In this document: piece by piece, positions 28,596 to 48,060 of the stretch
How the letters are laid out: each line of letters opens with the position of its first letter
Numbering within the stretch: the stretch's first letter is position 1
NCBI GenBank assembly: GCA_964650475.1
Contig: CAZYRK010000001.1
Location: forward strand, 8,356-72,355
DNA: 64,000 nt
Direction of reading: 5' to 3'
From: an uncultured Candidatus Saccharibacteria bacterium
GTDB lineage: Bacteria; Patescibacteriota; Minisyncoccia; Phycocordibacterales; Phycocordibacteraceae
Made by a program: the position numbers and the translations under genes
Notes under the pieces: generated by a model
Databases searched by the model: none
Seen by the model: the letters and a program-made list of their open reading frames with translations, nothing else
Told to the model about the DNA's origin: nothing

Positions 28596-28667
28596 CTCCG
28601 GCGGTAGGACTCGAACCTACAACCAATTCGTTAACAGCGAACTGCTCTACCATTGAGCTACACCGGA
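28596..28667 (-). tRNA. tRNA-Asn (anticodon GTT)
   Basis: Hand-folded: acceptor TCCGGTG/CGCCGGA, D-stem GCTC/GAGC, anticodon stem GTTCG/CGAAT with loop CTGTTAA, T-stem GTAGG/CCTAC with loop TTCGAGT, discriminator G. Confidence 0.85.
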
Positions 28668-28790
28668 ATGTGTTTTTATTGCAAATTTATCTTTGCTGGT
28701 TTCAGCGCAAGCCAAAACCGTACTGATAAGTATAGCGAATATGAAACGTCTTTGCAAAGCATGCGGCACTATCGTTTTTTAAGTCGTAAT

Positions 28791-29393
28791 TTATCGTAAG
28801 GCGAGGGTGCTGGCGTTCTCCATTATTTTGCGTGCGAGTTCATCTTGAGTGTGTGGGATATGTGCAATTTTTATATGCCCAACAACGCGAATCGTCATAT
28901 TCTTGCAAACACCAAGTGCAATGCTCGGATTTAAAGTCCTCTTCCCCACTCGCACAGTATTCCTCTGGTCTAAAAGAATATCCACTTGTTTGTGTTTGCT
29001 GGCGTTCATTGTATCTGCAATAACACGATAGCCTATTTGTTTTTTAACAAGCCCATAACCACATGTTGGTGAATATTTTTCATTTAGACTTACCATTACC
29101 ACGGTTCCAAAAGGAAGTTTTTTTGCTAGGTCGCGCGAACGCGCGGCAACTACTTCCGGATTTGAATATGCTCCACTTGCCGTTATAAATGGCGACCCGT
29201 CGGTTTGCTCCGGCACAGCATTGTATGAAGTAACAGTTACGTTTAATTTTGATTTAGACGGTATCTTTTTAGTTACGGAAACGGTACTTGCTACTGTTTG
29301 CACAGGAAAATGAACACCGGCTGTCGGAGAGTTTGGTACCGAGATACTCGGCAAAAAGAAAAGACCCATAAGGGCTGAAGCGATAAGATGCAT
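28791..29393 (-). CDS. secreted 3D-domain (MltA-like fold) protein
   Basis: Signal peptide; TSYNAVPEQTDGSPFITASG is typical of 3D-domain proteins. Immediately downstream of the large surface-protein gene. Confidence 0.5.
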   Translation of the reverse strand: MHLIASALMGLFFLPSISVPNSPTAGVHFPVQTVASTVSVTKKIPSKSKLNVTVTSYNAVPEQTDGSPFITASGAYSNPEVVAARSRDLAKKLPFGTVVMVSLNEKYSPTCGYGLVKKQIGYRVIADTMNASKHKQVDILLDQRNTVRVGKRTLNPSIALGVCKNMTIRVVGHIKIAHIPHTQDELARKIMENASTLALR

Positions 29394-29474
29394 AGGTTTG
29401 AGAGAATTGTCTCTGTCTTAATACACCAAACCCTACCACATTGGCATAGCTCTTGTCAATAGCAAAACACTTGT

Positions 29475-32400: not shown

Positions 32401-32726
32401 GATGAGCCACTTGCTACAATTAAAGTGTTGCTGTTATTACCTTCCCAAATATCGCCTCTCTTAAATAAGACCTCGTCTCCGGGGTTAAGGGTGGCGTCAT
32501 TTACTTTTGAAATAGTTTTCCACGGAGCACTGATTGAAGTTCCGTTGTTTGTATCACTTCCGTTTACTGAGTCCACATAATATGTAGCGGCACTTACGCT
32601 TTGGGGAATGATTAAAATAAACAGGATAAAAAACACACTTAGCATAAGCATGCTTTTGGAAAACAGTCTGTCGTGACCAAATTTTAAACCATAATACTTT
32701 AACAAACCGCTTTTAATTTTCTCCAT
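29475..32726 (-). CDS. large secreted/cell-surface protein: right-handed beta-helix + CBM4/9-like module + Fn3-like region + C-terminal peptidoglycan-binding (PG_binding_1) domain
   Basis: N-terminal TM/signal. ATYYVDSVNGSDTNNGTSISAPWKTI...PGDEVLFKRGDIW is a beta-helix N-cap. LNPSFDTDLSNWF begins the CBM. Repeated NN(I/K)IWxS beta-helix rungs. C-terminus LQTFLNSHGYLVSDTGYGAPGHETTYFGRKTYRALVRYQKSKGL is PG-binding. Confidence 0.7.
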   Translation of the reverse strand: MEKIKSGLLKYYGLKFGHDRLFSKSMLMLSVFFILFILIIPQSVSAATYYVDSVNGSDTNNGTSISAPWKTISKVNDATLNPGDEVLFKRGDIWEGNNSNTLIVASGSSDGYITYGAYGTGSKPVLTTAVTRNKTSDWENKTGNIWVNSDNAGITEGSEKLLNPSFDTDLSNWFTYLNLGAGVTGSAERTTTSGEFYSAPAGYKLTVSTSSASSNDIQFGTTHLSIESGKYYKFSFYAKSDNEFSATISLFKESPPYTLYYSNAPVRVHTITTSWKKYTIYFKASKTVSDARINFSLGLIPNNSVVYLDDMSFKEVSVSGGFLDSDVGNIIMENKSIFGVKVWKENDLTAQGDYWYDLNNHALEMYSTQNPADFYHNDITLVLRNMNIEASNKKYNIFTGLGISMGGALGISMHNSDHMIIKNCDFSYIGGGDQYMDGIHTVRYGNAVQLWNAGHDIDIYNNKIWQIYDDAVTPQGSSTSNIYNIYIYNNIIWNSEYGLAFWERPEDTTVNNIHFENNSIIKSGGGWAHNQRPDGVNGRAFIFWSNPAILTNIFIRNNIAYDSTESAIRTTDTDWFSKLNLDYNHYSKSGTLIDIYSPTYKSYASDELNSWRLDSGKDLHSIAATAYFNDYAKYNFKLSSNSPDIDAGTYISYRTKDFAGNPIYGAPDIGAYEYQPPYAIGTNNIPTTGSIRIYGDGKYRMKTASSSSAKASFSVTPVGGKYLATTTQFMDITIDKWNTTGNKNKEWTASSATGEFKTHATSTVYTVGDLMPNTYYQFKIDGTASTTAVTGSACNSNGECLSDSSGQIIFKYIGGYSTHTFALDKYTDAPSTFNLLGEAKAKLSNSSKLSWNKSSSDIGIAKYRLYVDGAIASDNIPPTSTSVSVPTTYKCNESHEWSVMAVDNNGNTTSSDKKNFNIPCGDITPVSTIKKTATSTSALIDSGTEMLGKVAHTRPSTKQKTATPKPTLTNAQVSAIISILKSFGVDADIIKKVESTLGKTQSIDIPVYKFMRNLNLGDVGARVKKLQTFLNSHGYLVSDTGYGAPGHETTYFGRKTYRALVRYQKSKGLPATGWFGPMTRASI

Positions 32727-32834
32727 TTTTAAATAATTTCTTCTGCGTTTCTAATGTACTTATTGTACTACATACAAAAAAACGTGTTTCTTGTGTGTAG
32801 CCACGACGCATTACTTTTTTACAGCTTCAATTAT

Positions 32835-33848
32835 TTAAGATTTTGGCTCTATTGTGTTTTGTGGTGTGCCTTTGGCGAAAGCTGTAAGGTTTTCCGCAGA
32901 CGTGTCGAGAATACGCTCGACAGCTTCCTGCGAATTAAATGCGATGTGCGCGGTGACGATAACACGCGGATGATCTATAAGATAATGGTTTGCAAGAGTT
33001 GTCTTTAGTTCTTCTTCGCGCGGATGCGGAAGCGAGAAAAGCCTTGCTTCGTCTTGCATGTCTCCCTCTTCTTCAAGAACATCGAGCCCCGCTCCCGCAA
33101 GCACATTTTCTTGAAGTGCGGTAACAAGTGCCTCTGTTTCAACCACCGCTCCGCGAGCCGTGTTTATAAGATACGCTCCTTTTTTAAACTCGTGGATATT
33201 GTCTTTATTAATCAGGTGATGCGTTTGCGGATTGTACGGAACATGTAGCGTTACTATGTCAGATTTATTCAATAGTTCATTAAGAGATACATATGTAAAA
33301 CCGAGTTCTTTGTCTAGCCCCTCTTTCGGAAAAGCGTCAAACGCGATTACATTCATAGCAAACCCTTTTGCCATTTGTATCGCGTGCACACCGATATGCC
33401 CCGTGCCAACAACACCAATAGTCTTTCCTGAAAGATCAAAACCGCGCAGACCTTCCTGCGAAAAAGACCCTGTATTACTGACACGCTTATACGCATCATA
33501 GATACGGCGCGAAAGAGCAAGGATAAGTGCGAAAGCAAACTCTGCGACAGTATTTACCCCGTAAGAAGGTACGGTACAGACAAGTATCCCGCGTTTTTTT
33601 GCTTCAACAAGATCGATATGGTCAAAACCGGTCGAGCGCGTGGCGATAATTTTCAAATTTGGGAACTTGTCGAGCTCTTTAGCTCCGATATGCGTTGTTA
33701 TAAATATAGACAGCGCTTCGGCATCAGCATCGCCTTCCAGTTCCCCGTCTTTTGAAATAAGAAACTCGGTCTCATAACCGGCTTCGGACAGCCTTTCTTC
33801 TAGGTACTCCTGTTCCCACTCTTCCTCTGCAATGTATACAAGTTTCAT
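32835..33848 (-). CDS. D-isomer-specific 2-hydroxyacid dehydrogenase (lactate/glycerate/hydroxypyruvate reductase type)
   Basis: NAD-binding GVVGTGHIGVHAIQ and catalytic-domain signatures. Adjacent to eno. Confidence 0.75.
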   Translation of the reverse strand: MKLVYIAEEEWEQEYLEERLSEAGYETEFLISKDGELEGDADAEALSIFITTHIGAKELDKFPNLKIIATRSTGFDHIDLVEAKKRGILVCTVPSYGVNTVAEFAFALILALSRRIYDAYKRVSNTGSFSQEGLRGFDLSGKTIGVVGTGHIGVHAIQMAKGFAMNVIAFDAFPKEGLDKELGFTYVSLNELLNKSDIVTLHVPYNPQTHHLINKDNIHEFKKGAYLINTARGAVVETEALVTALQENVLAGAGLDVLEEEGDMQDEARLFSLPHPREEELKTTLANHYLIDHPRVIVTAHIAFNSQEAVERILDTSAENLTAFAKGTPQNTIEPKS

Positions 33849-33857
33849 ATTACGATT

Positions 33858-35057
33858 TTAATTAAGTTCTGTTTCTATTTCTTGCAATCGTTCATATTTT
33901 CTGCGACGTTGCATCTGCCCAAACCCGCCGGCTTTTATACCGTGAGACCCCATTCCATAAGCAAAATCCGCTATGAAAGTGTCTTCTGTCTCGCCTGAAC
34001 GGTGCGAGCAGACTGTAGCCCACCCTGCGGAATGCGTTTTCAAAACAGCTTTTGCCGCTTCAGATACCGTACCTATTTGATTTGGTTTTATAAGCACTGC
34101 ATTTATCGAGTGCTTTGATATAGCGTCCTCAATGCGCTCTGTGTCGGTAACGATTAAATCATCACCTATTACAAGTACCTTGTCTCCAAGTGCCGCTGTG
34201 ATAGAAACAAATCCATCAACATCATCTTCAGCGAAAGGGTCTTCTATCGCATGAAATGGAAACTTGCTAACTAGAGTTTCGTATAGTTCCTGTAGTTCGG
34301 ACGGTGTGTACTTTTTGCCGAGCAATTTGTATGCATCTGTTCCGTCTCGCAATCCGTTTGCGGCAGCATCGATAGCTATCGAAGTGTTTGGATGAGCGCT
34401 AACAAGCTCGGAAAGTATCTCGAAAGGTCTTTCTATCGCTTCAAACTTTGGCGAATATCCACCTTCGTCTCCCATCGGGAGCTCGTTTGTTTCTTTGCGC
34501 AACATTTCACCGAGTGTTGCAAAAGCACTTTCTGCCGTTTTTACAGACTCTGTTACAGTTTTCTCACCCACTACAAACAAATACTCTTGTATCGGTAAAC
34601 GGAAATCTGCGTGTTCCCCACCGTTCATTACGTTTACAAACAAATGAGGGGCAGAAGGTGTGGTGCCGTAGGTATCTGCAAGATACCTCCACAAAGGAAC
34701 ACCTGCCTCTTGCGCGAAAAGTCGCGATGCAGCGATGGAGACAGAGAGGATTGCGTTTGCTCCAAGACGCGACTTGTCCGGAGTTCCGTCTAAGTCAATG
34801 AGGAAGTCATCGATTTCTTTCGTTGAAGCAAAATCTTTTTCTGAAAGTGAGAAAAAAATCTCTCCCTCAAGCGAGGCACACACACCGGAAACCCCGCCAT
34901 CTGCATCACGAAGTTCTTTTGCTTCATGTGAGCCCGTACTTTTTCCGGAAGGAACCGACGCAATCGCCTCAAGAGAATCTGTACGAAGAGTAGTCTCAAC
35001 TGTCTCGCGCCCTCGGCTATCTAAAATAGCTCGCGCATGTATTTCTTTTATTCTCAT
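33858..35057 (-). CDS. eno: enolase (phosphopyruvate hydratase)
   Basis: MRIKEIHARAILDSRG N-terminus and the SHRSGETEDTFIADFA signature. The true start is probably the internal Met at 35057, not the ORF-track 35117. Confidence 0.9.
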   Translation of the reverse strand: MRIKEIHARAILDSRGRETVETTLRTDSLEAIASVPSGKSTGSHEAKELRDADGGVSGVCASLEGEIFFSLSEKDFASTKEIDDFLIDLDGTPDKSRLGANAILSVSIAASRLFAQEAGVPLWRYLADTYGTTPSAPHLFVNVMNGGEHADFRLPIQEYLFVVGEKTVTESVKTAESAFATLGEMLRKETNELPMGDEGGYSPKFEAIERPFEILSELVSAHPNTSIAIDAAANGLRDGTDAYKLLGKKYTPSELQELYETLVSKFPFHAIEDPFAEDDVDGFVSITAALGDKVLVIGDDLIVTDTERIEDAISKHSINAVLIKPNQIGTVSEAAKAVLKTHSAGWATVCSHRSGETEDTFIADFAYGMGSHGIKAGGFGQMQRRRKYERLQEIETELN

Positions 35058-35058
35058 A

Positions 35059-37512
35059 TTACTCTTTTGTACTTTCAGAAGGCTTTTTACCAGAACCTCT
35101 GCCAAGCTCCTCTTCAAGCTTTGCTACGTTTATCATTGTTTTTACAACAACGTCCGAGTTAAGCGACATACTTTCAATCCCGTTCTCAACCAAGAAAGAT
35201 GCGAAGTCCGGAAGGTCTGAAGGTCCTTGTCCGCAAATTCCGATATATTTTCCGCGTTCCTTTGCTTTGGCGATTATTGTCTCAATAAATTTACGTACTG
35301 CCGGATTGTTCTCATTTCCAACAGCGCTTACGATACCAGAGTCTCTATCCAAACCGAGCGTAAGCTGTGTAAGGTCGTTACTTCCGATGGACATTCCATC
35401 GAAGCGGTCGAAGAAATCATCTGCAAGCAATACGTTGCTTGGAATCTCACACATCATATACACAGGCGTAGCTTGTTCTCCTGGGCGAGCATACGATGTC
35501 GGCACGATACCGTGAGCAGACATAATCTTAAGAACCTTATCTGCCTCTTCTGTTGTACGGCAGAAAGGAATCATCGGAATAACATTGTTTAGTCCCATTG
35601 TCTCACGCACTATTTTTAGCGCTTCAACTTCCAGCACAAAAGCTTTCTCAAATTTCGGATCGTAATAACGCGATGCTCCACGCCAACCAATCATCGGGTT
35701 CGACTCCGTCGGTTCATAATCCGCTCCACCCAAAAGTGTGCTGTATTCGTTTGATTTGAAATCTGAAAAACGAACAATCACAGGGCGCGGATAAAACGCA
35801 GCTCCGATACGCGCAATTCCGTAAGACAGTTTGTCGCGATAAAAAGCAACAGGATCTTTCCACCCGACCATTTTCTTTGCAATAGCAAGCCTTAAGGCGT
35901 TTGAAAGCGACTTAAAATCAATAAGTGCCATCGGGTGCACTCCTATATGCGAAGCAATAATAAACTCTTCACGAGCAAGCCCGACACCTTCTACCGGCAA
36001 AAACGAGTGGTCGAAAGCCATGTCCGGTGTCGCAACATTTACCATTATTTTTGTGTCCGGTGTAGGGATTTTCGTAACATCATGTTCATGGATAGCAAAA
36101 TCTGCTTTCCCAGAATACACAGTACCCTCACTACCTATTGTGTCGGCTGTAACAATATCGCCAGTCTTAATAAGGTGTGTTGCACGTTCTGTGCCGACAA
36201 TAGCCGGTACGCCAAGCTCGCGCGAAACAATAGCGGCGTGCGAAGTACGACCTCCGCGATCGGTAATAATGGCAGATGCCATACGCATAATCGGTTCCCA
36301 GTCCGGGTCTGTCATGCTTGTAACAAGCACTTCTCCTTTTTTGAAGGTCGGTATTTTTTTAAGATCGAGAATAACGTGTGCCGGTCCAGTTGCAATGCTT
36401 GAACCCACCGAGATACCTTTTATTATTTCTTTACCATGCGACTTCATTTCAAACTCCTTGAGTTTTGTCATATCGCGCGTAGACTGCACTGTTTCCGGAC
36501 GCGCCTGCACCAGATAAAGCTCGTTTGTGTCGCCATCTTTAGCCCACTCCATATCCATTGGAGACCACTTTCCTGCACGGTCAGAATAATGCTTTTCCAC
36601 AATCATTCCCCACTCTGCAAGAGTGCGAATCTCATCATCGGAAAGAACAAAAGTATGCTGTTCCTCGTGTGTTGCGGAAATAACTTTCGTTTCTTGAATT
36701 CCGGACATCTTTCTGCCTCCGTAAATCATCTTTTTCTTTTTAACACCAGCTTTCTTTTCGATAATAGGGTTCGGTGCGGTATTTAGAGTTTCTTTGAATA
36801 CAAGGTACTCGTCCGGAATAACATGCCCCTGCACAATCATCTCGCCAAGCCCCCATGTCGCGTTAATGACAACGACATTACGAAAACCGGATTCCGTATC
36901 AACAGTAAACATAACGCCAGAAGCGCCCTTATCGCTTCTTACCATTTTTTGTACACCTGCAGAAAGAGCGACCTTCATATGCCCGTACCCTTTATCTATA
37001 CGGTACGAAATTGCGCGGTTCGTAAAGAGAGACGCCATTGTCCACTTAACAGCTTTCAAAACATCTTTTTTTCCACGAATACCCAAATAACTTTCTTGCT
37101 GACCTGCAAAAGACGCCCCTGGCAAGTCCTCTGCGGTTGCACTGGAGCGAACAGCCACATCGGTATTTTTTCCATACCGTTCTTCCATTTGTACATACGC
37201 TGCAAAAATCTCATCTGCAAGATCTTTAGGAAATTTTGTACGATAAATAGCGTTGCGTACCTTCTTTCCGCGCCGTGCCAAGTCCGCGAGGTTTTCTTTA
37301 TTGACACCATCGAGCGTTTTCTCAATAAAAGCATCAAGTCCTGTTTGCTGTAAAAAATAACGGTAAGCGGATGCTGTCGTAACAAAACCCGAAGGAATTC
37401 GTATACCTTTGTCGGTAAGATTGCGTATCATTTCACCAAGAGATGCGTTTTTACCACCGACTTCCGGAACATCATCCATGTTAATGTCTTCCATCCAAAG
37501 AATATGTGCCAT
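35059..37512 (-). CDS. ppsA: phosphoenolpyruvate synthase (pyruvate, water dikinase)
   Basis: N-terminal VGGKNASLGEM; phospho-His region GGRTSHAAIVSRELGVPAIVG; C-terminal PEP-utilising TIM barrel. 817 aa. Confidence 0.85.
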   Translation of the reverse strand: MAHILWMEDINMDDVPEVGGKNASLGEMIRNLTDKGIRIPSGFVTTASAYRYFLQQTGLDAFIEKTLDGVNKENLADLARRGKKVRNAIYRTKFPKDLADEIFAAYVQMEERYGKNTDVAVRSSATAEDLPGASFAGQQESYLGIRGKKDVLKAVKWTMASLFTNRAISYRIDKGYGHMKVALSAGVQKMVRSDKGASGVMFTVDTESGFRNVVVINATWGLGEMIVQGHVIPDEYLVFKETLNTAPNPIIEKKAGVKKKKMIYGGRKMSGIQETKVISATHEEQHTFVLSDDEIRTLAEWGMIVEKHYSDRAGKWSPMDMEWAKDGDTNELYLVQARPETVQSTRDMTKLKEFEMKSHGKEIIKGISVGSSIATGPAHVILDLKKIPTFKKGEVLVTSMTDPDWEPIMRMASAIITDRGGRTSHAAIVSRELGVPAIVGTERATHLIKTGDIVTADTIGSEGTVYSGKADFAIHEHDVTKIPTPDTKIMVNVATPDMAFDHSFLPVEGVGLAREEFIIASHIGVHPMALIDFKSLSNALRLAIAKKMVGWKDPVAFYRDKLSYGIARIGAAFYPRPVIVRFSDFKSNEYSTLLGGADYEPTESNPMIGWRGASRYYDPKFEKAFVLEVEALKIVRETMGLNNVIPMIPFCRTTEEADKVLKIMSAHGIVPTSYARPGEQATPVYMMCEIPSNVLLADDFFDRFDGMSIGSNDLTQLTLGLDRDSGIVSAVGNENNPAVRKFIETIIAKAKERGKYIGICGQGPSDLPDFASFLVENGIESMSLNSDVVVKTMINVAKLEEELGRGSGKKPSESTKE

Positions 37513-37527
37513 ATGTAATTTAATGTG

Positions 37528-38844
37528 TTATGTAATGCGAGCTTTAAGCGCAATTATAAGATCCGAGACGTTTGAACCGGTGTATCCGGTTATAAGAGCA
37601 TCTGCGGTTGCGGTGAAAAAATCATAAGAACTGTGTGATGCGAGATATTCACCAATATCAAGTGCGCGCTCTTCTGCGTGCGCTCTTGTAATATTATCAC
37701 ACAGTGCCCCTGCAAAATCCGTATCGTCGTGTCCATCTGAGGAAAACGGTATTATGATTTCGTCATCGTGAATACGCGCGAGTGCGGAAAGCGCAAGCTC
37801 CTGAGAGCGCCCGCCCTTGCCTGCGTTTTCATTGAGAGTAACGGTAGACTCGCCACCGTAAAGCAGAACAGTGCCCGGCTCCGCTTTGGAGAGTTCGTTT
37901 AAAACATCTTGTGCCACATCGCGCGCTTCACCGGAAAAGCGGTCGGTTACGATACGTGGTTTATACCCTTTTTCTTTAGCGGTTTCCGCCATAGCCTGAA
38001 GAGCCAAGACATTTGTAACAAGAAGCTCATTGTGTACCCGAGCAAAAAACTTTTCGTCTTTAGGGGTCGGAAGCAAAGCGACACCACTAAGCGCACGCAC
38101 GTTATACTTTTCGATAATCGCGCGCGCATCGTCTACGGTTGTTTCATCTTTTACAGTAGGTCCGGATGAAATAAATGAAATATCATTTCCCGGCACATCG
38201 GAAAAAATAAGACTCACTACACGCGCCGGGTACGCCACTTCCGCAAGCTTACCTCCGCGTGCTTTAGAAAGATGCTTACGCACTGTATTCATTTCTTGTA
38301 TTGTCGCACCAACATCGGTGAGCTCTTCAAAAACAGCAACTTCTGTTGCAACGGTTACAGGTTCTTCCGGCAAACACAAAAGAGTTGAGCCTCCTCCGGA
38401 AACAAGCACGATAACGATGTCGTCTTCTTTTAGTAAGTGCAACGTGTCGACTAGTTGCGATGTTGCTTCAACATTTTTTTCTGACGGTTTCGGATGGCTT
38501 CCTAAAAAACTTTTTATTTTCTTAAGTGGCAAACGATGGTTTGTATCCGCCACATCAATAATGGTGCCGCCGGCAATCCTGTCTCCCAAGATTTCTTCCA
38601 GAGCCGACCCTGCGACAACCGAACATTTTCCGGCTCCAACAACCCATATCTTTTGGTCTTTTTTAAGATTGTATGTATTTCCGACGACTGTAAGAGTGTC
38701 GCCACTAAGATTCACCGCCTTTATCAAAGCTGTACGCGTGTCGATTGCGGAGTATCCGGCTTCAACAATTTCAAGAGCATCGCGCCTCTTTTGCGTCTCG
38801 CCAAGAGATTCGGAGTTCTTAATAATCGCTGTCATTATATTCAA
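37528..38844 (-). CDS. glycerate kinase, MOFRL family (glycerate 2-kinase / TtuD-like)
   Basis: GTVLLYGGESTVTL...GKGGRSQELALSA signature of the DUF4147/MOFRL glycerate kinases. Confidence 0.7.
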   Translation of the reverse strand: MNIMTAIIKNSESLGETQKRRDALEIVEAGYSAIDTRTALIKAVNLSGDTLTVVGNTYNLKKDQKIWVVGAGKCSVVAGSALEEILGDRIAGGTIIDVADTNHRLPLKKIKSFLGSHPKPSEKNVEATSQLVDTLHLLKEDDIVIVLVSGGGSTLLCLPEEPVTVATEVAVFEELTDVGATIQEMNTVRKHLSKARGGKLAEVAYPARVVSLIFSDVPGNDISFISSGPTVKDETTVDDARAIIEKYNVRALSGVALLPTPKDEKFFARVHNELLVTNVLALQAMAETAKEKGYKPRIVTDRFSGEARDVAQDVLNELSKAEPGTVLLYGGESTVTLNENAGKGGRSQELALSALARIHDDEIIIPFSSDGHDDTDFAGALCDNITRAHAEERALDIGEYLASHSSYDFFTATADALITGYTGSNVSDLIIALKARIT

Positions 38845-38909
38845 TGATAACAGATGATTTTAAAAAATAATGTAAAACTGGGCGCACCTGTCGAAAAACC
38901 GATTTTTAA

Positions 38910-39668
38910 TTAAAAAGACTCAGAGTCTTTGACTGTCTCGCGTATGTCTTTATGTGACTTTGTAAGAGGCTTACCAAAAAGATTCGTATAAATAAAATTT
39001 ATCGCGTAGCGAGCTCCGGTAGTAAGTACGCCTTCACTGGAAAGGCGCCGCCCTGAAGTGTACATCGGTAGCGCAAAAGTCCATTTCACTTTTCCGACCT
39101 TGTTCAAACGACGTGCCACATCCGTGTCTTCGCCATAAAACTCGATAGTTGTATCAAAACCACCAACTATCTCAAAAGATGAGCGTCTTATTATAAAATT
39201 TCCTCCTTGAAGCATTGCTCCTTTTCTAAACATTTTTAGAAAAAGCTGTGTGATATATCCAAAAAAATAGAAAACCTTCACATACGCGCGCCTTAATATG
39301 GAAAGATCATAATAAATGAACGGACCACTTAAAGCCACAAGTTTTTCATCGCGCTCAAACTCACGGAGCACAGTCTCCAGCCAACCGCCTGGAAGCACTG
39401 TATCTGAATCAATATTTAAAATAAGCTCGCCGGTCGAAGCCTGCATGCCTGCATGACGAGCATGCACGAGTCCTTTTTTGGGTTCGTTTACAATTCGTAC
39501 CATTTCAAAATCGCCGGCGATTTTTGCGGTCGCGTCCGTACTTGCGTTGTTTACCACCACGACTTCGCAATCACACGGCGTGCGCGCGATTTCTTTTTCA
39601 ACCGAAGCAAGACACTTCGCTATGTATTTTTCTTCATTGTATGCCGGTATTACAAAACTGATATGCAT
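38910..39668 (-). CDS. family 2 glycosyltransferase
   Basis: ISFVIPAYNEEKYI and a DSD motif, NIDSDTVL. Confidence 0.7.
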   Translation of the reverse strand: MHISFVIPAYNEEKYIAKCLASVEKEIARTPCDCEVVVVNNASTDATAKIAGDFEMVRIVNEPKKGLVHARHAGMQASTGELILNIDSDTVLPGGWLETVLREFERDEKLVALSGPFIYYDLSILRRAYVKVFYFFGYITQLFLKMFRKGAMLQGGNFIIRRSSFEIVGGFDTTIEFYGEDTDVARRLNKVGKVKWTFALPMYTSGRRLSSEGVLTTGARYAINFIYTNLFGKPLTKSHKDIRETVKDSESF

Positions 39669-39762
39669 AAGTTATATAATAAACAAGATAGCAAAAAGAA
39701 AAAGCCCGGCAAGCAAAGCGAAAGCTTTACTTGCCGGGCTTTTGACGCCACCGGTTAAGAAA

Positions 39763-40401
39763 TCAATACAAATACAAACCGGCAGACACCCAAATAGCAA
39801 TCCCCAGCATATAGAAAGACATTTTTTCTTGTACTCCAAAGCGCCATAATGGGCTAAATTTTGCCTGTCCGAAATATGCCCATAAGGTAAGCAAAACGGA
39901 GGTCATGAATATATCGTTATTTGACACAGGGATTGTAGTCAACCCTGTGTACGCCATAACGATAACCCATGTTGTGAAAGTGGCAAAAAGAATGTGTATG
40001 TACCCCGCCACGGTCACATACCCTCCGTGTGCATGTGCCTCGGGTATGTTCTTGCTTGCCGGAGCATAAACCAACACTGCGAGCAAAAACCACGCCCAGA
40101 AAAAGATCATGAATAATACGAGGCCTCCAAACTGCATGTATTCGAAACTATACTTTTGCACAAGATACGCAACCAACGGACTTATGATGAACAAATCCGC
40201 CCACATACCTCCGTGCTGCATAAACGAATACCCTTTTACACCACGTTCCTCCATTTGTTTTTTTGTGGCGTATCCATCAATTCTGGACGCAACAAACTGC
40301 GCCAAAATTAAAAGAAGCTCCAGACCCAGCACTTCAAAGAAAATCGCATTTGCCTTGATTAATCCCCAAACGACAAAGAACATCTCATGTACATTAAACA
40401 T
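39763..40401 (-). CDS. hypothetical polytopic membrane protein
   Basis: 212-aa hydrophobic ORF, divergent from the gene at 40658. Confidence 0.5.
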   Translation of the reverse strand: MFNVHEMFFVVWGLIKANAIFFEVLGLELLLILAQFVASRIDGYATKKQMEERGVKGYSFMQHGGMWADLFIISPLVAYLVQKYSFEYMQFGGLVLFMIFFWAWFLLAVLVYAPASKNIPEAHAHGGYVTVAGYIHILFATFTTWVIVMAYTGLTTIPVSNNDIFMTSVLLTLWAYFGQAKFSPLWRFGVQEKMSFYMLGIAIWVSAGLYLY

Positions 40402-40496
40402 TTCACTCCTCCCTTTTTATATACACAATTATGATTTTTAATACATTGTTTATAAATGTATCTCCTGTATAAACTATATCTATTTTAGAGCATTAT

Positions 40497-40556
40497 GTCA
40501 AGCGCGCTGAATTAACTCTTGAACTGCAGTTCAAGAGTTAATTCAGCGCGCTTGAC
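40497..40556. repeat. perfect 60-bp palindrome centred on CTGCAG
   Basis: gtcaagcgcgctgaattaactcttgaactg|cagttcaagagttaattcagcgcgcttgac, checked base by base. Confidence 0.9.
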
Positions 40557-40657
40557 TATCGCTTGGCAATCTGGCATTATTATTTTTAGATAAAAGATCC
40601 TTTCAAAAAGTCAACCAACAAAAAGTAATACAAACCCTAAACCTAGAGGAGGTTATT

Positions 40658-41173: not shown

Positions 41174-41202
41174 TTTCCGCGTGTTTTCCACCACGCATTC
41201 AA

Positions 41203-41237
41203 AGGTTCGTCGTTTACGACGAACCTTTTTCTTTTTA
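41203..41237 (+). terminator. rho-independent terminator
   Basis: aaaggttcgtcg-tttac-gacgaacctttttcttttt. Confidence 0.7.
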
Positions 41238-41300
41238 AATCGCACTACATATAAAACTTAATAAACAGTGCGCCTTTATAATTAGTGCCCGTTACAACTC

Positions 41301-41337
41301 AAAACGCCCGCCGTTTACGGCGGGCGTTTTTTCTTTT
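41301..41337 (+). terminator. second tandem rho-independent terminator
   Basis: aaaacgcccgccg-tttac-ggcgggcgttttttcttttt. Confidence 0.7.
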
Positions 41338-41398
41338 TATATTATATTTAAGTGGATTGCTTCCCTATCGAAAACTAAATCTAATGTATGCTTATTAA

Positions 41399-43222
41399 AT
41401 GCTTACACGCCCACAATCCTGCTGTGTAAAAAACGTTTTCAATAACTCAGGAGACGTTTCGCTCACAAGTCTTATTTTCGGCGCGCCCCTTATTTTTACA
41501 GTACTCAGCATTATTGGTTTTTTGTTTCACCTGCCACTACTGTATTTAATAGTTATAGCCACTTCCATAGTAACAATTCTCATTCATTCTTATCATGAGA
41601 TTCGTAACGGAAATTTCTCACTCGAATACATAACACTGCTTGCTCTTTTTGTTAGCGCCGGAACAGAAGAATACCTTGCAGGAGCAATTATCGGCACCAT
41701 GTTTGCAATAGGCAGAGTTTTCGAAAAATACACTCTTGCGAGAGTTTTAAAACCTCTCAAAGATTTTTTAGATTTTATTCCGAAAACTGCTCTGATTAAA
41801 AAAGGCGTTTCAAAAACGCGAGAAACACCTATTACAAGCGTACACGAAGGAGACATTGTTGTGGTACATAATGGCAACGTCGTGCCTTTAGATGGTTGGC
41901 TCCTTTCAGAAAACGCGGTATTAAATATTTCAAAACTAACAAATGAACAGGCTCCGAAAATAATCCTGAGAGATGCATTCATCAGAAGCGGTAGTATCAA
42001 TACTGGAAAAACTTTTGAGTTTTTGGTTGCGAACACATCTGCAACATCAACGTACCACCGAGTAGTCTCACTTGTTACGCGAGCCAAAGTCGGCAGAGCA
42101 CACTTCGTGCGCTCTGCCGAAAAAGCAAACACACCGTTTACAATTTTAATACTCGCCGTGGCACTTGGCACATATTTAATAACACACGACCCTTCTCGCA
42201 CACTTGCGGTACTGGCAGTAGCAACAACAAGATCGCTTACTATCGCTACACCGATTGCTTTTTTCGGAGGTATTTCACAAACACTTCGTTCCAACATTAT
42301 AATCAAACATCCTTCCGTACTTGAAAGCCTTGCAAAGGCTTCCGATATCTTTTTTGACAAAACACGCACCCTGACATTCGGCTCGATACATTTTGTTGCT
42401 GTCGATTTATATAATTCGGATTTTTCCGTCACCAGTGCGCTCGCGTATGCGAGCGCACTGGGGCTCCACTCCACACACCCTCTTTCCGAAGCTGTTGTAA
42501 AAACCGCGCACATATGCGAAACACCGATATATTTCGCAACGAAAGTAACAGAACAAAGCAAAAGAGGTATAAACGGATATATAGACGGAATGCCGGTTTC
42601 TCTTACACATACAATTTCCCAAAAAACCGACTACGATATCGCACTCACTCTTTCTGTAAACGAAATACCATACGCAACATTATTTTTTGCAGAAAACATC
42701 GACACTGACACAAAAAAACAATTCCTAAAACTTTCCAAAACAGGATGTAATATTTCAATTTTTACTCAGAAACAATCTGCGTCGACACGAGTTTTTAAAC
42801 AAACGCCAATAACACTACACACCGGATGCACTTCTGAAAAAAAGAGTTCCTTAATCTCCCGAGCAAAACTTGGCGGGAAAATTGTAGCTGTTGTCGGTGA
42901 CGGAATGAGTGATACCCAAACCCTTTCATGTGCAGACGTGGGGATAATGCTTTCAGGTGCTGAAACAGGTACCTGCGTTTATGCAACAAGTGTTGTCGTG
43001 CTTGGAAATAATCCAGAGCATATACGCACCTTAATAAAGATTGCGAACAAAACCGTTTATATAGCAAAACAAAGTATATATATAGGTATAGGTTTTTCTA
43101 TTATAGGGATATGGTTTGCAACCGCAGGAATCATCACTCCTATTAGCGGAGCACTACTGCAAAAAACCGTAGATGTTTTCGTTACATTAAACACTCTTCG
43201 CAACAAAACAGCTGCACAATAA
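41399..43222 (+). CDS. divergent P1B-like P-type ATPase homolog with degenerate catalytic and metal-binding motifs
   Basis: Still has the HP motif (STHPLSEAVV) and a GDGMSDTQTLSCADVGIML hinge. DKTGT is DKTRT, TGES is TNEQ, and the TM6 CPC is replaced (TTRSLTIATPIAF). Confidence 0.6.
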   Translation: MLTRPQSCCVKNVFNNSGDVSLTSLIFGAPLIFTVLSIIGFLFHLPLLYLIVIATSIVTILIHSYHEIRNGNFSLEYITLLALFVSAGTEEYLAGAIIGTMFAIGRVFEKYTLARVLKPLKDFLDFIPKTALIKKGVSKTRETPITSVHEGDIVVVHNGNVVPLDGWLLSENAVLNISKLTNEQAPKIILRDAFIRSGSINTGKTFEFLVANTSATSTYHRVVSLVTRAKVGRAHFVRSAEKANTPFTILILAVALGTYLITHDPSRTLAVLAVATTRSLTIATPIAFFGGISQTLRSNIIIKHPSVLESLAKASDIFFDKTRTLTFGSIHFVAVDLYNSDFSVTSALAYASALGLHSTHPLSEAVVKTAHICETPIYFATKVTEQSKRGINGYIDGMPVSLTHTISQKTDYDIALTLSVNEIPYATLFFAENIDTDTKKQFLKLSKTGCNISIFTQKQSASTRVFKQTPITLHTGCTSEKKSSLISRAKLGGKIVAVVGDGMSDTQTLSCADVGIMLSGAETGTCVYATSVVVLGNNPEHIRTLIKIANKTVYIAKQSIYIGIGFSIIGIWFATAGIITPISGALLQKTVDVFVTLNTLRNKTAAQ

Positions 43223-43293: not shown

Positions 43294-43653
43294 ATGAACC
43301 TCTTAGCTTATCGTGAACATGAAAACCGACCATGGGGTTCGTTTGAACAATTCACTAAAAACGAGCCTTCGACTGTAAAAATAATTTCGGTCAAACCGGA
43401 CAAGCGTCTCTCTTTGCAAAAGCACGCGCACCGCAACGAGTTTTGGTACATAATTTCCGGAAACGGAACAGTAACAATAGGAGAAAAAGAGCTTCAGGCA
43501 AAACCAAACAACTCGTTTGAAGTTCCTGTCCACACGCTTCACCGTATTTCCGCAGGACACGAAGGTATCTCATTACTTGAAATTGCGTTTGGTTCTTTCG
43601 ATGAAAACGATATAGAACGCATTGAAGACGACTTCGGTCGCACCACCCCATAA
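43294..43653 (+). CDS. cupin-domain protein (mannose-6-phosphate isomerase type II C-terminal-like)
   Basis: 119-aa double-stranded beta-helix with His motifs, LQKHAHRNEFWYIISG...HRIS. Confidence 0.55.
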   Translation: MNLLAYREHENRPWGSFEQFTKNEPSTVKIISVKPDKRLSLQKHAHRNEFWYIISGNGTVTIGEKELQAKPNNSFEVPVHTLHRISAGHEGISLLEIAFGSFDENDIERIEDDFGRTTP

Positions 43654-44848
43654 ATTTATGTTCATACTTATCGCGTACACAATTGCGTTTTTTGTTACCG
43701 GTTTTACTGCCAGTGTTATTGTTGGAATTGTTTTTTTCCCTCCTGTACGGAAAAAAATTATCGAGAAGCTTTCAGAGTTTACAAAACATCATGAGGCAAA
43801 AAAACAACCTGAGCTTTTACTCAAACGACACCAAACAAACCCCATTTTAAAACCTCATGCAAATCTATGGGAAGCAGTGTCTGTAATGAACCCGGCGGCG
43901 ATACACCTAGACGGGAAAATCCATCTTATTTATCGAGCTATAGGAGCTGACGGTGTTTCGCGTCTCGGGTACGCAAACAGTAACGACGGTATAAATTTTG
44001 ATACAGTCCTTCCATATCCTGTTTACGCCGTATTGAACCCCGGCGGAGCCGGTTCAATACGGCGTTACTCCCCTGTTTTATATCCTTCCGGAGGTTCGTG
44101 GGGAGGTTGCGAAGATCCGCGCATGGTCGTGATAGATGAAAATGTGTACGTTACATTTAATCTGTTCGATAACTGGGTACTTCGTATCGGTGTAATATCA
44201 ATAAGCAAAAACAACTTCATTGCAAACCGTTTTAATAAATGGAGCGATGCGATTATCCTTTCGAACAGTAATCGTGAAAAAAACTGGATGTTATTTCCTG
44301 AGAAAATCCACGGGAAATTTGCCGTCTTGCACGGCATCATAGACGAAGATGAAAATAAGGTACGCATAGAATACACAGCCCACCTAAACGACTTATCCAA
44401 ACAAAAGTTTGAAACCGTTGACCCGCAAACAGTGCCTGACAAAAAAATCGCTTGGCATATGCACGTGCGCAGTGCAGGCCCTCCGCCGATAAAAACAAAA
44501 TACGGATGGCTCGTGCTCTATCACGCACACGACCAAGAAGAGTCGAGTCGCTATAAACTCGGAGCAATGCTACTCGACCTAAACGACCCGACAAAAATAT
44601 TACACCGATCTCCGCACCCCATACTCGAGCCCGATGCGGTATATGAAAACGATGGTAAGCCCGGGGTTATTTACGCTTGCGGTGCAGTGATAAAAGACGA
44701 TACGATGTTTGTGTACTATGGTGGAGCCGACAAAATAACTGCAGTAGCAAGCACTCCGGCGGAAGACTTTTTACAAGCACTTGTACAAGACAATACAAGC
44801 GCAGATGATGTGGAACTTTCACTTCATGCAAGTTCCGGAGCAAATTAA
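43622..44848 (+). CDS. GH130-family (DUF377) glycoside phosphorylase/hydrolase-like protein with an N-terminal TM anchor
   Basis: VMNPAAIHLDGKIHLIYRAIG and GCEDPRMVVIDENVYVTFN are GH130 signatures. The hydrophobic N-terminus is ILIAYTIAFFVTGFTASVIVGIVFF. The true start may be the ATG at 43658. Confidence 0.65.
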   Translation: MKTTSVAPPHKFMFILIAYTIAFFVTGFTASVIVGIVFFPPVRKKIIEKLSEFTKHHEAKKQPELLLKRHQTNPILKPHANLWEAVSVMNPAAIHLDGKIHLIYRAIGADGVSRLGYANSNDGINFDTVLPYPVYAVLNPGGAGSIRRYSPVLYPSGGSWGGCEDPRMVVIDENVYVTFNLFDNWVLRIGVISISKNNFIANRFNKWSDAIILSNSNREKNWMLFPEKIHGKFAVLHGIIDEDENKVRIEYTAHLNDLSKQKFETVDPQTVPDKKIAWHMHVRSAGPPPIKTKYGWLVLYHAHDQEESSRYKLGAMLLDLNDPTKILHRSPHPILEPDAVYENDGKPGVIYACGAVIKDDTMFVYYGGADKITAVASTPAEDFLQALVQDNTSADDVELSLHASSGAN

Positions 44849-44870
44849 AAATTAATTCAAATAAGAAAAC

Positions 44871-46802
44871 ATGTTTATTGTCCGTCGCGAACCAAGCAAC
44901 CCTATACTTTTACCGCACAACACACGCTCGTGGGAAGCTGTTGCCACTTACAATCCATCTGCCATCCGTACAAATGATGGCGTGCGCATATACTATAGAG
45001 CGCTTGGTGACCCGGACACACTTACTACCCCACCGGCAAGTTTCTCCACGGTTGCAACCGCCTTTTCCGAAGACGGGATTCATTTTCATTCACACCGTCA
45101 AGTAATATCTCCCACAGAACCGTGGGAACAATTCGGGTGCGAAGATCCACGTGCTACTTTTTTCGAAGGCAAATGGTACGTATTTTATACCGCACTAGGT
45201 GGCTTCCCTTTTGGTCCGGACAATATAAAAGTCGGTGTAGCTATCGGTGAAAAACCCGAGGAGCTCACCGAACACCGTCTTGTTACACCATTCAATGCAA
45301 AAGCCGCAACTTTATTTCCGGAGCGCATCGATGGTGATGTGGTTTTAATGCTAACAGCTCATACAGATTGGACCGAGGAGCACCCGTACCCGACAATAGG
45401 CATAGCTCGTGCAAAACAAATCGAAGACTTTTTTGATAGCTCGTATTGGGAAGATTGGCATTCAAACATTGAGCAACACGCACTTGCGGAGCTACGCCGT
45501 TCAGACAATGACCATATTGAAGTTGGGGCAACACCTATCAAGACAAACGAGGGCTGGTTGTTTATATATTCTTATATCCAAAATTATTATGATGAGAGCA
45601 AACGTACCTTTGGTATCGAGGCAGCTATTCTTGACCGTGGAAATCCAAAACGTCTAATCTCACGAACGTACCCTATGCTTGTTCCTGAAGAAGTTTATGA
45701 AAAATACGGACTTGTACCGAATATCATATTTCCTTCCGGAGCTACAATAAACGGCAACATGCTTGAGATATGGTATGGAGCCTCAGATACAGTCTCTGCA
45801 AAATGCTACATTCGACTAAACGACATTTTGCGCGCGCTCGACCCTTCGCGCCCTGCGCGCACTCTTATACGTGCACCACAAAATCCGATACTCGAACCGC
45901 GTGGAAACGGTTTTGAAGAATCCGCAGTATTTAATGCCGGCGCGATAGACCTCGACGGCTCGATATATATCTTATACAGAGCAATGGGTAGCGAAAACAC
46001 ATCTGTAATAGGATGTGCGATTTCAAAAGACGGGGTTCATATCGATGAAAGACTTGATAAACCGATATATATTCCACGCGCGGATTTTGAACAGAAAAAA
46101 GGAGGCTCACACGGAAATTCTGGTTGTGAAGACCCACGTCTTTCTTTAATTGATAATCGTATTTATCTTACGTATACCGCATACGACGGTGTGAACACCC
46201 CAAAAGGCGCATTGTCTTCTATATCTGTCGAAGATTTTAAAGCCCGTCGTTTTGAAAATTGGGAAATGCCGGTGCTCATCACACCAGATAATATAGACGA
46301 CAAAGACATTGGTCTTTTGCCTGAAAAAATTGATGGGAACTTCCTAATCTATCACCGCATAGCGAACCATATCTGCGCTGACATACTTCCGGATATTACG
46401 CTTGGGAAACGTATTTCGCGATGCATAGAGATTATGGGGCCACGCGAAGGTATGTGGGATTCAGAAAAAGTTGGTCTTGCAGGCACACCGATTAAAGTCG
46501 AAGACGGTTGGCTCTTTATATATCACGGGGTTTCGCATCGAGGACGATATCGCCTTGGAGTGGCACTTCTTGCGCATGACGGACTTACCATCTTGGCGCG
46601 TACCGCAGATCCTGTTTTTGAACCCGTTAAACCATATGAACAAGACGGGGCTGTTCATAACGTTGTCTTTTCCTGTGGAAGCGTGGTTCGTGATGACACT
46701 GTTTTCGTATATTACGGTGGAGGTGATCGTGTTACCGGAGTGGCAACAGGTAGCATGAAGCACATACTGGACACTCTTCGCGCAAACAAAACATATGTCT
46801 GA
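44871..46802 (+). CDS. tandem double GH130-like domain protein
   Basis: Two full repeats, each with YNPSAI/FNAGAI...YRA(L/M)G and GCEDPR motifs (GCEDPRATFFEGKWYVFYTA and GCEDPRLSLIDNRIYLTYTA). 643 aa. Confidence 0.65.
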   Translation: MFIVRREPSNPILLPHNTRSWEAVATYNPSAIRTNDGVRIYYRALGDPDTLTTPPASFSTVATAFSEDGIHFHSHRQVISPTEPWEQFGCEDPRATFFEGKWYVFYTALGGFPFGPDNIKVGVAIGEKPEELTEHRLVTPFNAKAATLFPERIDGDVVLMLTAHTDWTEEHPYPTIGIARAKQIEDFFDSSYWEDWHSNIEQHALAELRRSDNDHIEVGATPIKTNEGWLFIYSYIQNYYDESKRTFGIEAAILDRGNPKRLISRTYPMLVPEEVYEKYGLVPNIIFPSGATINGNMLEIWYGASDTVSAKCYIRLNDILRALDPSRPARTLIRAPQNPILEPRGNGFEESAVFNAGAIDLDGSIYILYRAMGSENTSVIGCAISKDGVHIDERLDKPIYIPRADFEQKKGGSHGNSGCEDPRLSLIDNRIYLTYTAYDGVNTPKGALSSISVEDFKARRFENWEMPVLITPDNIDDKDIGLLPEKIDGNFLIYHRIANHICADILPDITLGKRISRCIEIMGPREGMWDSEKVGLAGTPIKVEDGWLFIYHGVSHRGRYRLGVALLAHDGLTILARTADPVFEPVKPYEQDGAVHNVVFSCGSVVRDDTVFVYYGGGDRVTGVATGSMKHILDTLRANKTYV

Positions 46803-47568
46803 TTTACCTTCGCAAGCGATACCAAAATGTGTCATGTTTGACTTGGACAATACACTTGCCAAAAGCAAGCAGTCTCTTGACGAGACAATGGCGCAAACGC
46901 TTACAAAACTTTTGAAAGTTACAAACGTTGCAATAACTTCCGGAGGAAAACTTGAGCAACTCGTTAAGCAGGTCGACAACCAACTTGGTGACGAAGCCTG
47001 TCGCGAGAGACTTTTCTTATTACCGACCTCAGGTGCCTCTCTTTACGTACATACCAACAATACATGGACTCGCATATATGAAGAGACTCTTTCTCCGAAA
47101 GAAGAAAGAGAAATTGCAAACGCTATAAAGATAGCAAACGATACTACGCACACTGTCGATTTTAACCAAAGAGCTTATGGAGAGCGAATCGAGTTTCGTG
47201 GAGCGCAAGTTTCTTTCTCTGCGCTCGGTCAAGAAGCTCCGCTTGATAAAAAACTGACGTGGGACAAGACGCGCGCGAAACGCGAAGCGTTTCGCGCGCG
47301 TCTTGCTCCGATACTAAAAAACTACACAGTGCGCATCGGTGGCACAACGACAATCGACATAACAAAAAAAGGTATCGACAAAGCCTATGGAGTACGCAAA
47401 CTTTCCGAATACCTCTCTATTCCAATTAAACAGATGCTTTATGTCGGCGACGAGCTTAAAGAAAACGGCAATGACGAGGTGGTTATTTCAACAGGTATCA
47501 AAACACACCCTGTTACATCTCCGGACGACACGCGAGATTTTATAAAACAATTTATCTTACATATTTAA
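46795..47568 (+). CDS. HAD-superfamily hydrolase (IIB/Cof-like sugar-phosphate phosphatase type)
   Basis: Motif I VMFDLDNTLA, motif II ITSGG, C-terminal GDELKENGND. Overlaps the GH130 gene stop. Confidence 0.6.
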   Translation: MSDLPSQAIPKCVMFDLDNTLAKSKQSLDETMAQTLTKLLKVTNVAITSGGKLEQLVKQVDNQLGDEACRERLFLLPTSGASLYVHTNNTWTRIYEETLSPKEEREIANAIKIANDTTHTVDFNQRAYGERIEFRGAQVSFSALGQEAPLDKKLTWDKTRAKREAFRARLAPILKNYTVRIGGTTTIDITKKGIDKAYGVRKLSEYLSIPIKQMLYVGDELKENGNDEVVISTGIKTHPVTSPDDTRDFIKQFILHI

Positions 47569-47625: not shown

Positions 47626-48060
47626 TAGAAAGTAATGTGGCGCGGGTTTTTACACTAAGTTTTGCGGACACTTAGTGTCCGCAAGTGTTTAAGTGTCCGC
47701 AAGTGTTTAAAAGCTGTACATTGCGATGAGTTTTGCGGACACTTAGTGTCGGCAGAAGTGTCGGCAGAACTTGCGGACACTTAGCGCAGAACAAGTTGCG
47801 GACACTTAGTGTCCGCAGAAATGTCCGCAGAAATTAACAACTAAAAAGCGCGCGGTACGTTGCGATGAATGTGATAAAACTCGGGAGAGCTTCCTTGTTC
47901 GCGTTTCGTCCGCGTCATGCTGTTTTGTAATGCAGCGCGGGGTTTTGCGGACACTTAGTGTCCGCAAAAGTAATGTAGCGCGGGATTTTGAGGTTTGGAG
48001 AGACCAGCTAACATTTTGGGAAGGTCTAACCTTCCCAACTTCATTCCGAAGGTTAAAGTT
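47626..48060. repeat. mosaic hairpin-repeat locus 1 (modules A, B, C, D, E, F)
   Basis: At least 6 copies of the palindrome tttgcggacac-tta-gtgtccgcaaa, plus ggtacgttgcgatg, gtaatgtagcgcgNggttttg..gagaccagctaaca and ttgggaaggtctaaccttcccaac modules shared with loci 2 and 3. Confidence 0.8.

Follow-up and report, generated by a model that had tools for sequence, protein, structure and literature searches.

P-type ATPases are among the most strictly conserved of enzyme families, and their signature motifs are regarded as near-invariant. In these enzymes metal binding triggers phosphorylation; the TGE loop, the TGD motif and the hinge Asn take part in transferring and hydrolysing the phosphoryl group, and a proline in transmembrane helix M4 is conserved throughout. 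Among the heavy-metal (P1B) pumps, subclass P1B-5 is exemplified by Nia of Sinorhizobium meliloti and by the P1B-5-ATPase of Acidothermus cellulolyticus. Here we analyze a gene for a 607-aa protein of this subclass, located in a 64,000-nucleotide stretch of contig CAZYRK010000001.1 (assembly GCA_964650475.1; hereafter the window), in which the metal site and several catalytic loops are altered while the reading frame is kept by purifying selection.

Several described systems provide points of comparison. TPCP/PCP is the P1B-5 signature, PCP being counted among the P1B signatures (PMC4932525); Ni2+ and Fe2+ are tentative P1B-5 substrates (PMC10246665), and a hemerythrin domain is known from some of these pumps (PMC9388753). 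Our definition of the subclass follows these three papers. A Cys-containing motif of M4 (TM6 when eight helices are counted), of the form xPC, CPx or PCP, is described as essential in all P1B pumps studied (PMC4285229), and (C/S)PC together with an acidic residue in M6 makes up the essential metal site (PMC4285229, PMC8880997). Built-in counter-ions have been described in P1B pumps, namely the K693-D714 pair of SsZntA and H657 of sCoaT (PMC8880997). A P-type scaffold in a role beyond plain cation pumping is known from the P4-ATPase-like domains of apicomplexan guanylyl cyclases, although PfGCalpha has conserved, and requires, 47 of 56 catalytic residues as well as the Asp (PMC7858053). In the full-text literature on P-type ATPases combined with pseudoenzymes or inactivity, we found no stand-alone bacterial member lacking the ion site and several loops while under purifying selection.

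A P1B-5 ortholog with altered metal site and catalytic loops

An earlier note, made from the letters of the window alone, had described the open reading frame (ORF) as P1B-like, and profile scores agree. The protein passes the generic P-type model TIGR01494 of NCBIfam (102.3 bits, cutoff 62.3) and PF00122 (E1-E2_ATPase; 82.3 bits, cutoff 28.1), and because both scores exceed the curated cutoffs it belongs by profile to the P-type ATPase superfamily. Heavy-metal P1B models are the closest, yet it reaches only 283.7 bits on TIGR01525 (curated cutoff 346.25) and 260.4 on TIGR01512 (cutoff 313.5), and its PF00702 (Hydrolase) score of 23.1 lies under the gathering score of 26.4. It shares the fold of P1B-5 pumps, with their order of A-domain, P-domain and N-domain with SxHP, and their eight hydrophobic segments. 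It lacks the C-terminal hemerythrin domain of some P1B-5 pumps, as do its closest intact relatives; two of the homologs matched carry one.

Outside its own 90% cluster of five near-identical sequences, the nearest homolog is 47% identical, has intact motifs and comes from a Paceibacterota metagenome-assembled genome (locus L088). Gene order is common to this locus and the window: 794-aa ATPase, GT2, ..., P1B-5, cupin MPI, GH130, GH130, PMM, H+-ATPase, MTS, HisRS. The window gene is therefore the positional ortholog of an intact P1B-5 pump and not, as had been proposed, a paralog of either of the window's two other P-type ATPases; these are of different classes, and we confirm that their TGES and DKTGTLT motifs are intact. 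Ten syntenic gene pairs are 57-85% identical, against 47% for the P1B-5 pair; only the homolog of an upstream 171-aa ORF is lower (28%). The window gene and its intact ortholog differ in GC content (43% vs 60%), and synonymous sites are saturated between them. Homologs down to 25% identity all carry TGE, TPCP, DKTGT, SxH(P), GxG, (T/S)GD, PxxK, GDGxNDAP and the M6 motif QExxD. The presence of TPCP in all nearest relatives implies that this, and not CPC, was the ancestral M4 motif, so that "no CPC" had correctly identified the loss of a metal motif but not which motif was lost. Synteny and motifs together point to descent from, and orthology with, P1B-5 members.

Residue alignments to the solved pumps LpCopA (3rfu), SsZntA (4umv) and sCoaT (7qbz) unambiguously place TNE on TGE, T276-T277-R278 on C-P-C, DKTRT on DKTGT and GDGMSDTQ on GDGxNDAP. 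The substitutions are thus not alignment artefacts, a caveat attached to the original observation of TNEQ and DKTRT; that observation was accurate and, in view of the further losses listed in Table 1, understated. We judged motif conservation against sets of 23 to 80 relatives, 80 being the larger alignment. All 22 close relatives have TPCP and QExxD where the window protein has TTRS and QKTVD. Position 182, Asn here, is Gly in 80 of 80 relatives, and position 277, Thr here, is Pro in all 80, the proline of CPC/SPC in ZntA, CopA and sCoaT. R278 aligns with ZntA C394 and K589 with the ZntA metal ligand Asp714, and the ATTRSL stretch of M4 contains neither Cys nor Pro. Five positions ahead of the HP His, where 75 of 80 relatives have E or D, the window protein has Gly355. 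Hydropathy of M1, M4 and M6 falls at the 0-1st percentile, making these helices the least hydrophobic in the family, while the outer helices are normal.

Much of the chemical core nevertheless remains. As previously noted, the protein has STHPL, the IATPIAF segment and, at D320, the phospho-Asp. The HAD phosphotransfer core is retained (D320, K321, T322, T324, T456, K482, D501 and D505), as are T181 and E183 in the A-domain, S358, H360, P361, E385, G390 and G393 in the N-domain, and Q588 and D592 in M6.

Table 1. Positions of the gene, its motifs, related proteins and neighbouring features (window coordinates unless a locus is named)
Feature	Position	Strand	Remarks
Degenerate P1B-5-type ATPase gene, 607 aa	41399..43222	+	From ORF, family scores, synteny and seven-copy selection
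A-domain loop TNEQ (181-184); family TGE(P/A/S)	41939..41950	+	Gly182 lost; Thr181, Glu183 kept
M4 ATTRSL (275-280) for ATPCPL	42221..42238	+	Pro, metal-ligand Cys and second Pro replaced by Thr-Arg-Ser
Phosphorylation loop DKTRTLT (320-326)	42356..42376	+	Asp320, Lys321, Thr322, Thr324, Thr326 kept; Gly323 to Arg
N-domain GLHSTHP (355-361)	42461..42481	+	SxHP kept; E355G
N-domain EQSKRGING (385-393)	42551..42577	+	First Gly of ExxGxGxxG nucleotide loop to Lys (G388K); G390, G393 kept
P-domain T-QK (456-458) for (T/S)GD	42764..42772	+	Gly deleted, Asp to Gln, Thr kept
SEKK (479-482) for P(E/D)xK	42833..42844	+	Pro to Ser; conserved Lys482 kept
Hinge GDGMSDTQ (500-507) for GDGxNDAP	42896..42919	+	Asp501, Asp505 kept; Asn, Ala, Pro lost
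M6 QKTVD (588-592) for QExID	43160..43174	+	Glu589 to Lys; Gln588, Asp592 kept
Degenerate P1B-5 homologs P0241, P0394	L094:1173-3008, L095:1120-2955		Saccharimonadia-like CPR lineage
Canonical CPC-type pump with DKTRT	L090:4646-6583	-	
Canonical CPC-type pump with DKTRT	L092:560-2425	+	
Canonical CPC-type pump with DKTRT	L093:3405-5345	+	
P-type ATPase, 794 aa, unclassified	22097-24481	+	TGES and DKTGTLT intact
Hypothetical gene, 171 aa	40658..41173	+	In sister genomes, homologs precede the intact ATPase by a few kb
Homologs of the 171-aa protein	L088:6726-7310, L002:2275-2856		Proteins of 171-194 aa; 27-28% identity
Two strong intrinsic-terminator-like hairpins, in tandem	41201-41238, 41301-41340	+	Between the upstream gene and the ATPase ORF
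Weak promoter-like site	41314-41343	+	Overlaps the terminator-like hairpin region
Antisense ORF, 322 aa (open stretch 345 codons)	41593-42561	-	Within the ATPase gene
Cupin mannose-6-P isomerase-like gene, two GH130 genes, PMM-like HAD gene	43294..47568	+	Downstream, syntenic
P3A-type H+-ATPase	at 48593		By class assignment; TGES and DKTGTLT intact

The extent of these losses is exceptional within the family. In a leave-one-out comparison of 13 sequences, the window protein is altered at 22 of the 74 sites invariant in 11 relatives, while each relative is altered at 0 to 6. At least 90% conservation among the 80 relatives is found in 66 columns, and 20 of these, including metal ligands and active-site loops, are changed here. 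All seven motifs are present in 122 of 134 full-length family representatives; 11 of the others lack QExxD only, and a single one (P0241) is multiply degenerate. The pattern of degeneration in the window protein is far beyond chance. Judged by its M4 Cys/Pro motif, its TGE, TGD and hinge sequences and the profile cutoffs, the protein falls outside the family of working P1B pumps.

It is important to note that one of the substitutions does not by itself indicate inactivity. The claim that each signature element is altered stands as regards the losses but not in treating DKTRT as abnormal: a scan of metagenomes with back-translated FDKTRTLTFG recovered three CPC-type P1B pumps that share this phosphorylation loop and are canonical in every other motif, with TGE, CPC, SSHP, TGD and GDGVNDAP all present, unlike the window protein. 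The three are 72-77% identical to each other, with saturated synonymous divergence (dS) and dN/dS (omega) below 0.1, and only 23-25% identical to the window protein. Because this is a conserved clade of otherwise canonical pumps, Arg after DKT appears to be tolerated, and we rejected DKTRT as a sign of inactivity. Recognition of DKTRT as a tolerated natural variant is a small but useful correction to motif-based classification.

The multiply degenerate representative, P0241, and a second allele, P0394, come from a Saccharimonadia-like lineage of the Candidate Phyla Radiation (CPR; Patescibacteria). In P0241, DKTGT has become NKTGV with loss of the phospho-Asp, TGE has become TGQ and PCP has become PSP, the hinge reads GDGASDSP and M6 reads QQILI. 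By comparison, all motifs are present in every one of its 119 closest relatives (48-54% identity), several of which are named Patescibacteria or Saccharimonadales. The two alleles, from two samples, are full length and differ by 8 synonymous and 4 nonsynonymous changes; the divergent neighbour of P0241 is a VIT1-family gene. Like the window protein, P0241/P0394 is a lone degenerate lineage among intact relatives, with an intact ORF and multiple catalytic and metal-site losses, but the substitutions are different and moderately conserved positions have been retained normally. Taken together, the two cases indicate that two CPR lineages have independently yielded degenerate P1B-5 genes with intact ORFs.

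Accelerated divergence and present purifying selection

Since its separation from the intact ortholog the window gene has evolved rapidly. Tajima-type relative-rate tests with ten outgroups assign 63-99 unique changes to the window lineage and 27-39 to its intact sister (p from 0.017 to 6e-10); against a consensus of five outgroup sequences the counts are 110 and 22, spread over all domains. When consensus positions are grouped by conservation class, the window protein retains fractions of 0.69, 0.70, 0.54 and 0.35, compared with 1.00, 0.93, 0.73 and 0.49 in normal members, so that relative to these it has kept roughly 70-75% of consensus residues in every class. This flat loss across conservation classes implies that the site-specific constraints of the family were lifted. 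Base composition alone is no explanation, because the AT-rich member P0003 shows no such loss; moreover, both other ATPases of the window keep their motifs under the same AT-biased mutation.

The gene is at present under purifying selection. We compared seven copies from independent assemblies and samples, whose 90% cluster comprises five distinct 607-aa sequences. All seven are 1824 nucleotides long with no stop and no indel, and the degenerate motifs are identical in every copy. Among the 62 segregating sites, 37 are synonymous and 25 nonsynonymous. By the NG86 method, omega between pairs of copies ranges from 0.15 to 0.25, with dS reaching 0.069 at most, compared with 0.09-0.24 for the adjacent cupin gene and up to 0.30 for other neighbours, and the excess of synonymous changes holds under strong transition bias (P = 0.0006 for one pair; binomial 2e-5 over all sites). 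Constraint is uneven along the gene: codons 346-607, which encode the N-domain, hinge and M5-M6, have 21 synonymous and 6 nonsynonymous changes, against 16 and 19 in codons 1-345 (Fisher p = 0.018). When neutral evolution was simulated by substitutions only, up to the observed loss of residues, the ORF stayed open in 0-1.5% of runs. Third-position GC content (GC3) lies inside the range of the genome, and the core of the gene contains a single in-frame codon deletion.

These observations show that the window gene is kept by purifying selection and is no plain pseudogene. The suggestion of a decaying paralog, and the frameshifts and relaxed selection that would have accompanied it, find no counterpart in the seven copies. 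Loss of residues required by the parent mechanism is here combined with purifying selection, two of the three criteria by which a pseudoenzyme is recognized, the third being lack of the parental activity.

Competing explanations for the conserved reading frame

We interpret the gene as a probable "pseudo-pump", a P1B-5 ortholog that would no longer pump metal and would be kept under a different constraint; from the sequence evidence we assign this reading a probability of about 0.55. R278 and K589 occupy two metal-ligand positions, the M4 proline has been lost and the core helices have become polar, so that metal could no longer be bound and occluded in the canonical way. The lost metal site together with the TGE, TGD and hinge changes means that the normal E1-E1P-E2P-E2 cycle should not run. 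The ancestor would have been a TPCP-type, Ni2+/Fe2+-class metal-exporting ATPase in which pumping stopped in this Paceibacterota lineage. After the split from the intact ortholog, the old site-specific constraints were lifted without the reading frame ever being broken, and the cycle of metal-triggered phosphorylation and TGE-catalysed dephosphorylation would have ceased. With its retained HAD core and HP motif the protein may still bind nucleotide or phosphate weakly, or become phosphorylated slowly and only once; such residual binding would be compatible with the intactness of that core and with the tightly constrained N/P-domain half. D592 and Q588, both retained, may form pairs with the tethered Arg and Lys, mimicking an occupied or counter-ion-filled site. 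The protein would then have a role in the membrane other than transport, as a scaffold, switch or sensor, or would provide a passive polar pathway. More tentative, and in our estimation somewhat short of an even chance, is the fuller proposition that this is a prokaryotic, non-pumping pseudo-P-type ATPase with its ion site filled by tethered Arg/Lys and its loops dismantled, and that such conversion recurs independently in CPR.

Comparison with the described systems helps to define what would be new here. Relative to P1B-5 pumps, the window protein lacks TPCP, the M6 Glu, the Gly of TGE, TGD and the NDAP hinge. In ZntA and sCoaT, as apparently in the window protein (R278, and K589 near D592), a basic side chain lies at the transmembrane metal site beside an M6 carboxylate, but in those pumps it is additional to intact Cys/carboxylate ligands within a running cycle, whereas here basic residues replace the ligands and leave no metal site. 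The apicomplexan domains are eukaryotic, P4-type and fused to a cyclase; the window protein is stand-alone, prokaryotic, derived from P1B and far more degenerate.

Several observations weigh against the loss of pumping. The whole HAD phosphotransfer core and the A-domain Glu are retained, so catalysis is formally possible, and functional-looking pumps carry the DKTRT variant. The flanking genes are the same as those around the intact ortholog, and nothing in our results pointed positively to a new function. Although the evolutionary evidence is solid, the lineage is narrow: it consists of one 90%-identity cluster at species level with dS no greater than 0.07, and the estimates of selection therefore rest on 62 polymorphic sites.

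Of the two functional options raised in the earlier note that survive our analysis, a pseudo-ATPase and an ATPase with altered chemistry, the second is the strongest competitor, although we consider it less likely. It holds that the protein is a still-working P-type ATPase, its HAD core supporting phosphorylation and dephosphorylation, whose cargo has changed or that uses tethered counter-ions in a modified cycle. In the former case the remodelled M4/M6 site, polar and cationic (Arg, Lys, Ser/Thr), would bind an anion, a polar organic compound or a lipid head group, for instance, in place of a transition-metal cation. Consistent with this, thirteen residues of the phosphotransfer core, A-domain and SxHP motif are retained (D320, K321, T322, T324, T456, K482, D501, D505, T181, E183, S358, H360 and P361), the strongest current constraint falls on the N-domain, hinge and M5-M6 half, DKTRT occurs in a conserved clade of canonical pumps with omega below 0.1, and built-in cationic residues are known in P1B-2 and P1B-4 pumps (ZntA K693, sCoaT H657; PMC8880997). 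However, a working cycle is difficult to reconcile with the joint loss of the TGE Gly, the TGD Gly-Asp (with a deletion), the hinge Asn, the adenine-pocket Glu and the first Gly of the nucleotide loop, residues that are kept in 22 of 22 close relatives and each in at least 74 of 80 in the larger alignment; the M4 proline is gone as well. The flat loss across conservation classes resembles released catalytic constraint rather than the retuning of a site, and the Pfam Hydrolase and P1B subfamily scores are under their cutoffs. On balance we favour a repurposed, non-pumping protein over an active ATPase with a new substrate, and regard both decay and selection on an overlapping feature as unlikely.

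Decay, in which a recently inactivated gene is en route to loss and its ORF is open only because little time has passed, is much less probable still. An approximately 5-fold acceleration relative to the ortholog, the loss of invariant residues at the same rate as variable ones and the missed family cutoffs are what such a gene would show, but the seven intact copies, their omega values and their significant synonymous excess are not. Substitutions sufficient for the observed divergence would have closed the ORF in at least 98.5% of neutral simulations, even with indels ignored, and the one core deletion is in frame. Furthermore, GC3 is unremarkable, the leader is roughly 3 times more conserved than synonymous sites, and the host genome is streamlined; bacteria purge pseudogenes fast (PMC6054270). 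No Shine-Dalgarno motif precedes the window gene, which could be counted in favour of decay; because the motif is missing from most genes of this genome, we rejected its absence as a sign of non-expression.

A long antisense ORF within the gene raises the question of whether another feature is being conserved. Its open stretch of 345 codons, uninterrupted in each of the seven copies, is longer than in any of 2000 synonymous-codon shuffles. Similarly long shadow ORFs occur in two other, unrelated genes of the window (14192-15937 and 37528-38844), the effect being absent in 14 others, and in the GC-rich sister gene the antisense strand is open for 606 of 635 codons; the antisense ORF may be a legacy of a GC-rich ancestor. 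Its 322-aa product has no match in a Pfam search. Constraint on this ORF, or on uninterrupted translation or transcription into the cupin and GH130 genes (a search for terminators gave none from the ATPase stop codon to the cupin gene), is the least probable explanation, and we judged the antisense ORF unlikely to be a selected feature. Synonymous and nonsynonymous counts are similar for both frames in the overlap, but those counts are not independent, because the third codon positions of the two frames coincide. The tightest sense constraint lies almost entirely beyond the antisense ORF, and avoidance of polarity would select against stops without lowering missense rates.

Genomic surroundings and wider meaning

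The window is ordinary chromosome, with genes for Mur ligase, PBPs, aminoacyl-tRNA synthetases and DnaG. Proteins named Candidatus Paceibacterota, Parcubacteria or Kaiserbacteria share 71-79% identity with the LysRS encoded there, a resemblance that identifies the host, an uncultured and ultra-small organism, as a CPR bacterium. A scan of GTDB species genomes with the single window protein gave no match, and the top match to the family alignment reached only 32% identity; the window lineage is therefore without a close representative among GTDB species genomes. The 794-aa ATPase lies under the curated cutoff of every NCBIfam subfamily but is 69% conserved and syntenic in the sister genome, and may represent an unclassified group of P-type ATPases in Paceibacterota.

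We rejected genomic context as a clue to function, since identical neighbours flank the intact ortholog and adjacency to the cupin and GH130 genes must therefore be ancestral. The 171-aa gene is the fastest-evolving of the syntenic block and lies upstream of the P1B-5 gene in degenerate and intact lineages alike; the hypothetical proteins of 171-194 aa have no match in a Pfam search. Between it and the ATPase gene, both terminator-like hairpins have the loop TTTACG and similar stems, and across alleles they are fully conserved apart from a single A/G difference at the bottom of the second stem (alignment A4 column 144). No Rfam family reached its gathering score in the leader, where the matches were generic terminator hairpins, and we accordingly rejected a riboswitch or other known RNA element there.

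Two intervals differ in length from their counterparts in the sister genome. In the window, the 171-aa gene and the ATPase are set apart from the GT2 gene (24509-25234) by approximately 15 kb (25235-40657), where in L088 the 171-aa homolog follows at approximately 0.7 kb and the ATPase at approximately 3.8 kb. Within the additional DNA are low-GC stretches (26-32 kb, GC 0.33-0.37), a tRNA-Asn (28594-28667), a 1083-aa CBM/beta-helix/PG-binding protein, a PPDK-like gene and a glycerate-kinase-like gene, which suggests an insertion or rearrangement. In the gap of approximately 1 kb between the PMM-like and H+-ATPase genes, positions 47659-47984 contain 5 copies of a palindromic unit (TTGCGGACACTTAGTGTCCGCAA-like) and 3 copies of a second, 23-nucleotide repeat; in the sister genome the two genes lie side by side and were annotated as a single product of 1051 aa.

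If the loss of pumping is confirmed, P-type pumps would join the enzyme scaffolds that evolve into pseudoenzymes. The window gene would also constitute a natural "experiment" showing which regions of the fold remain important after transport is given up, here the N-domain, the hinge and the M5-M6 half. Finally, it would flag a class of genes that automatic annotation would mislabel as "heavy metal translocating ATPase" when metal resistance is predicted for CPR bacteria.

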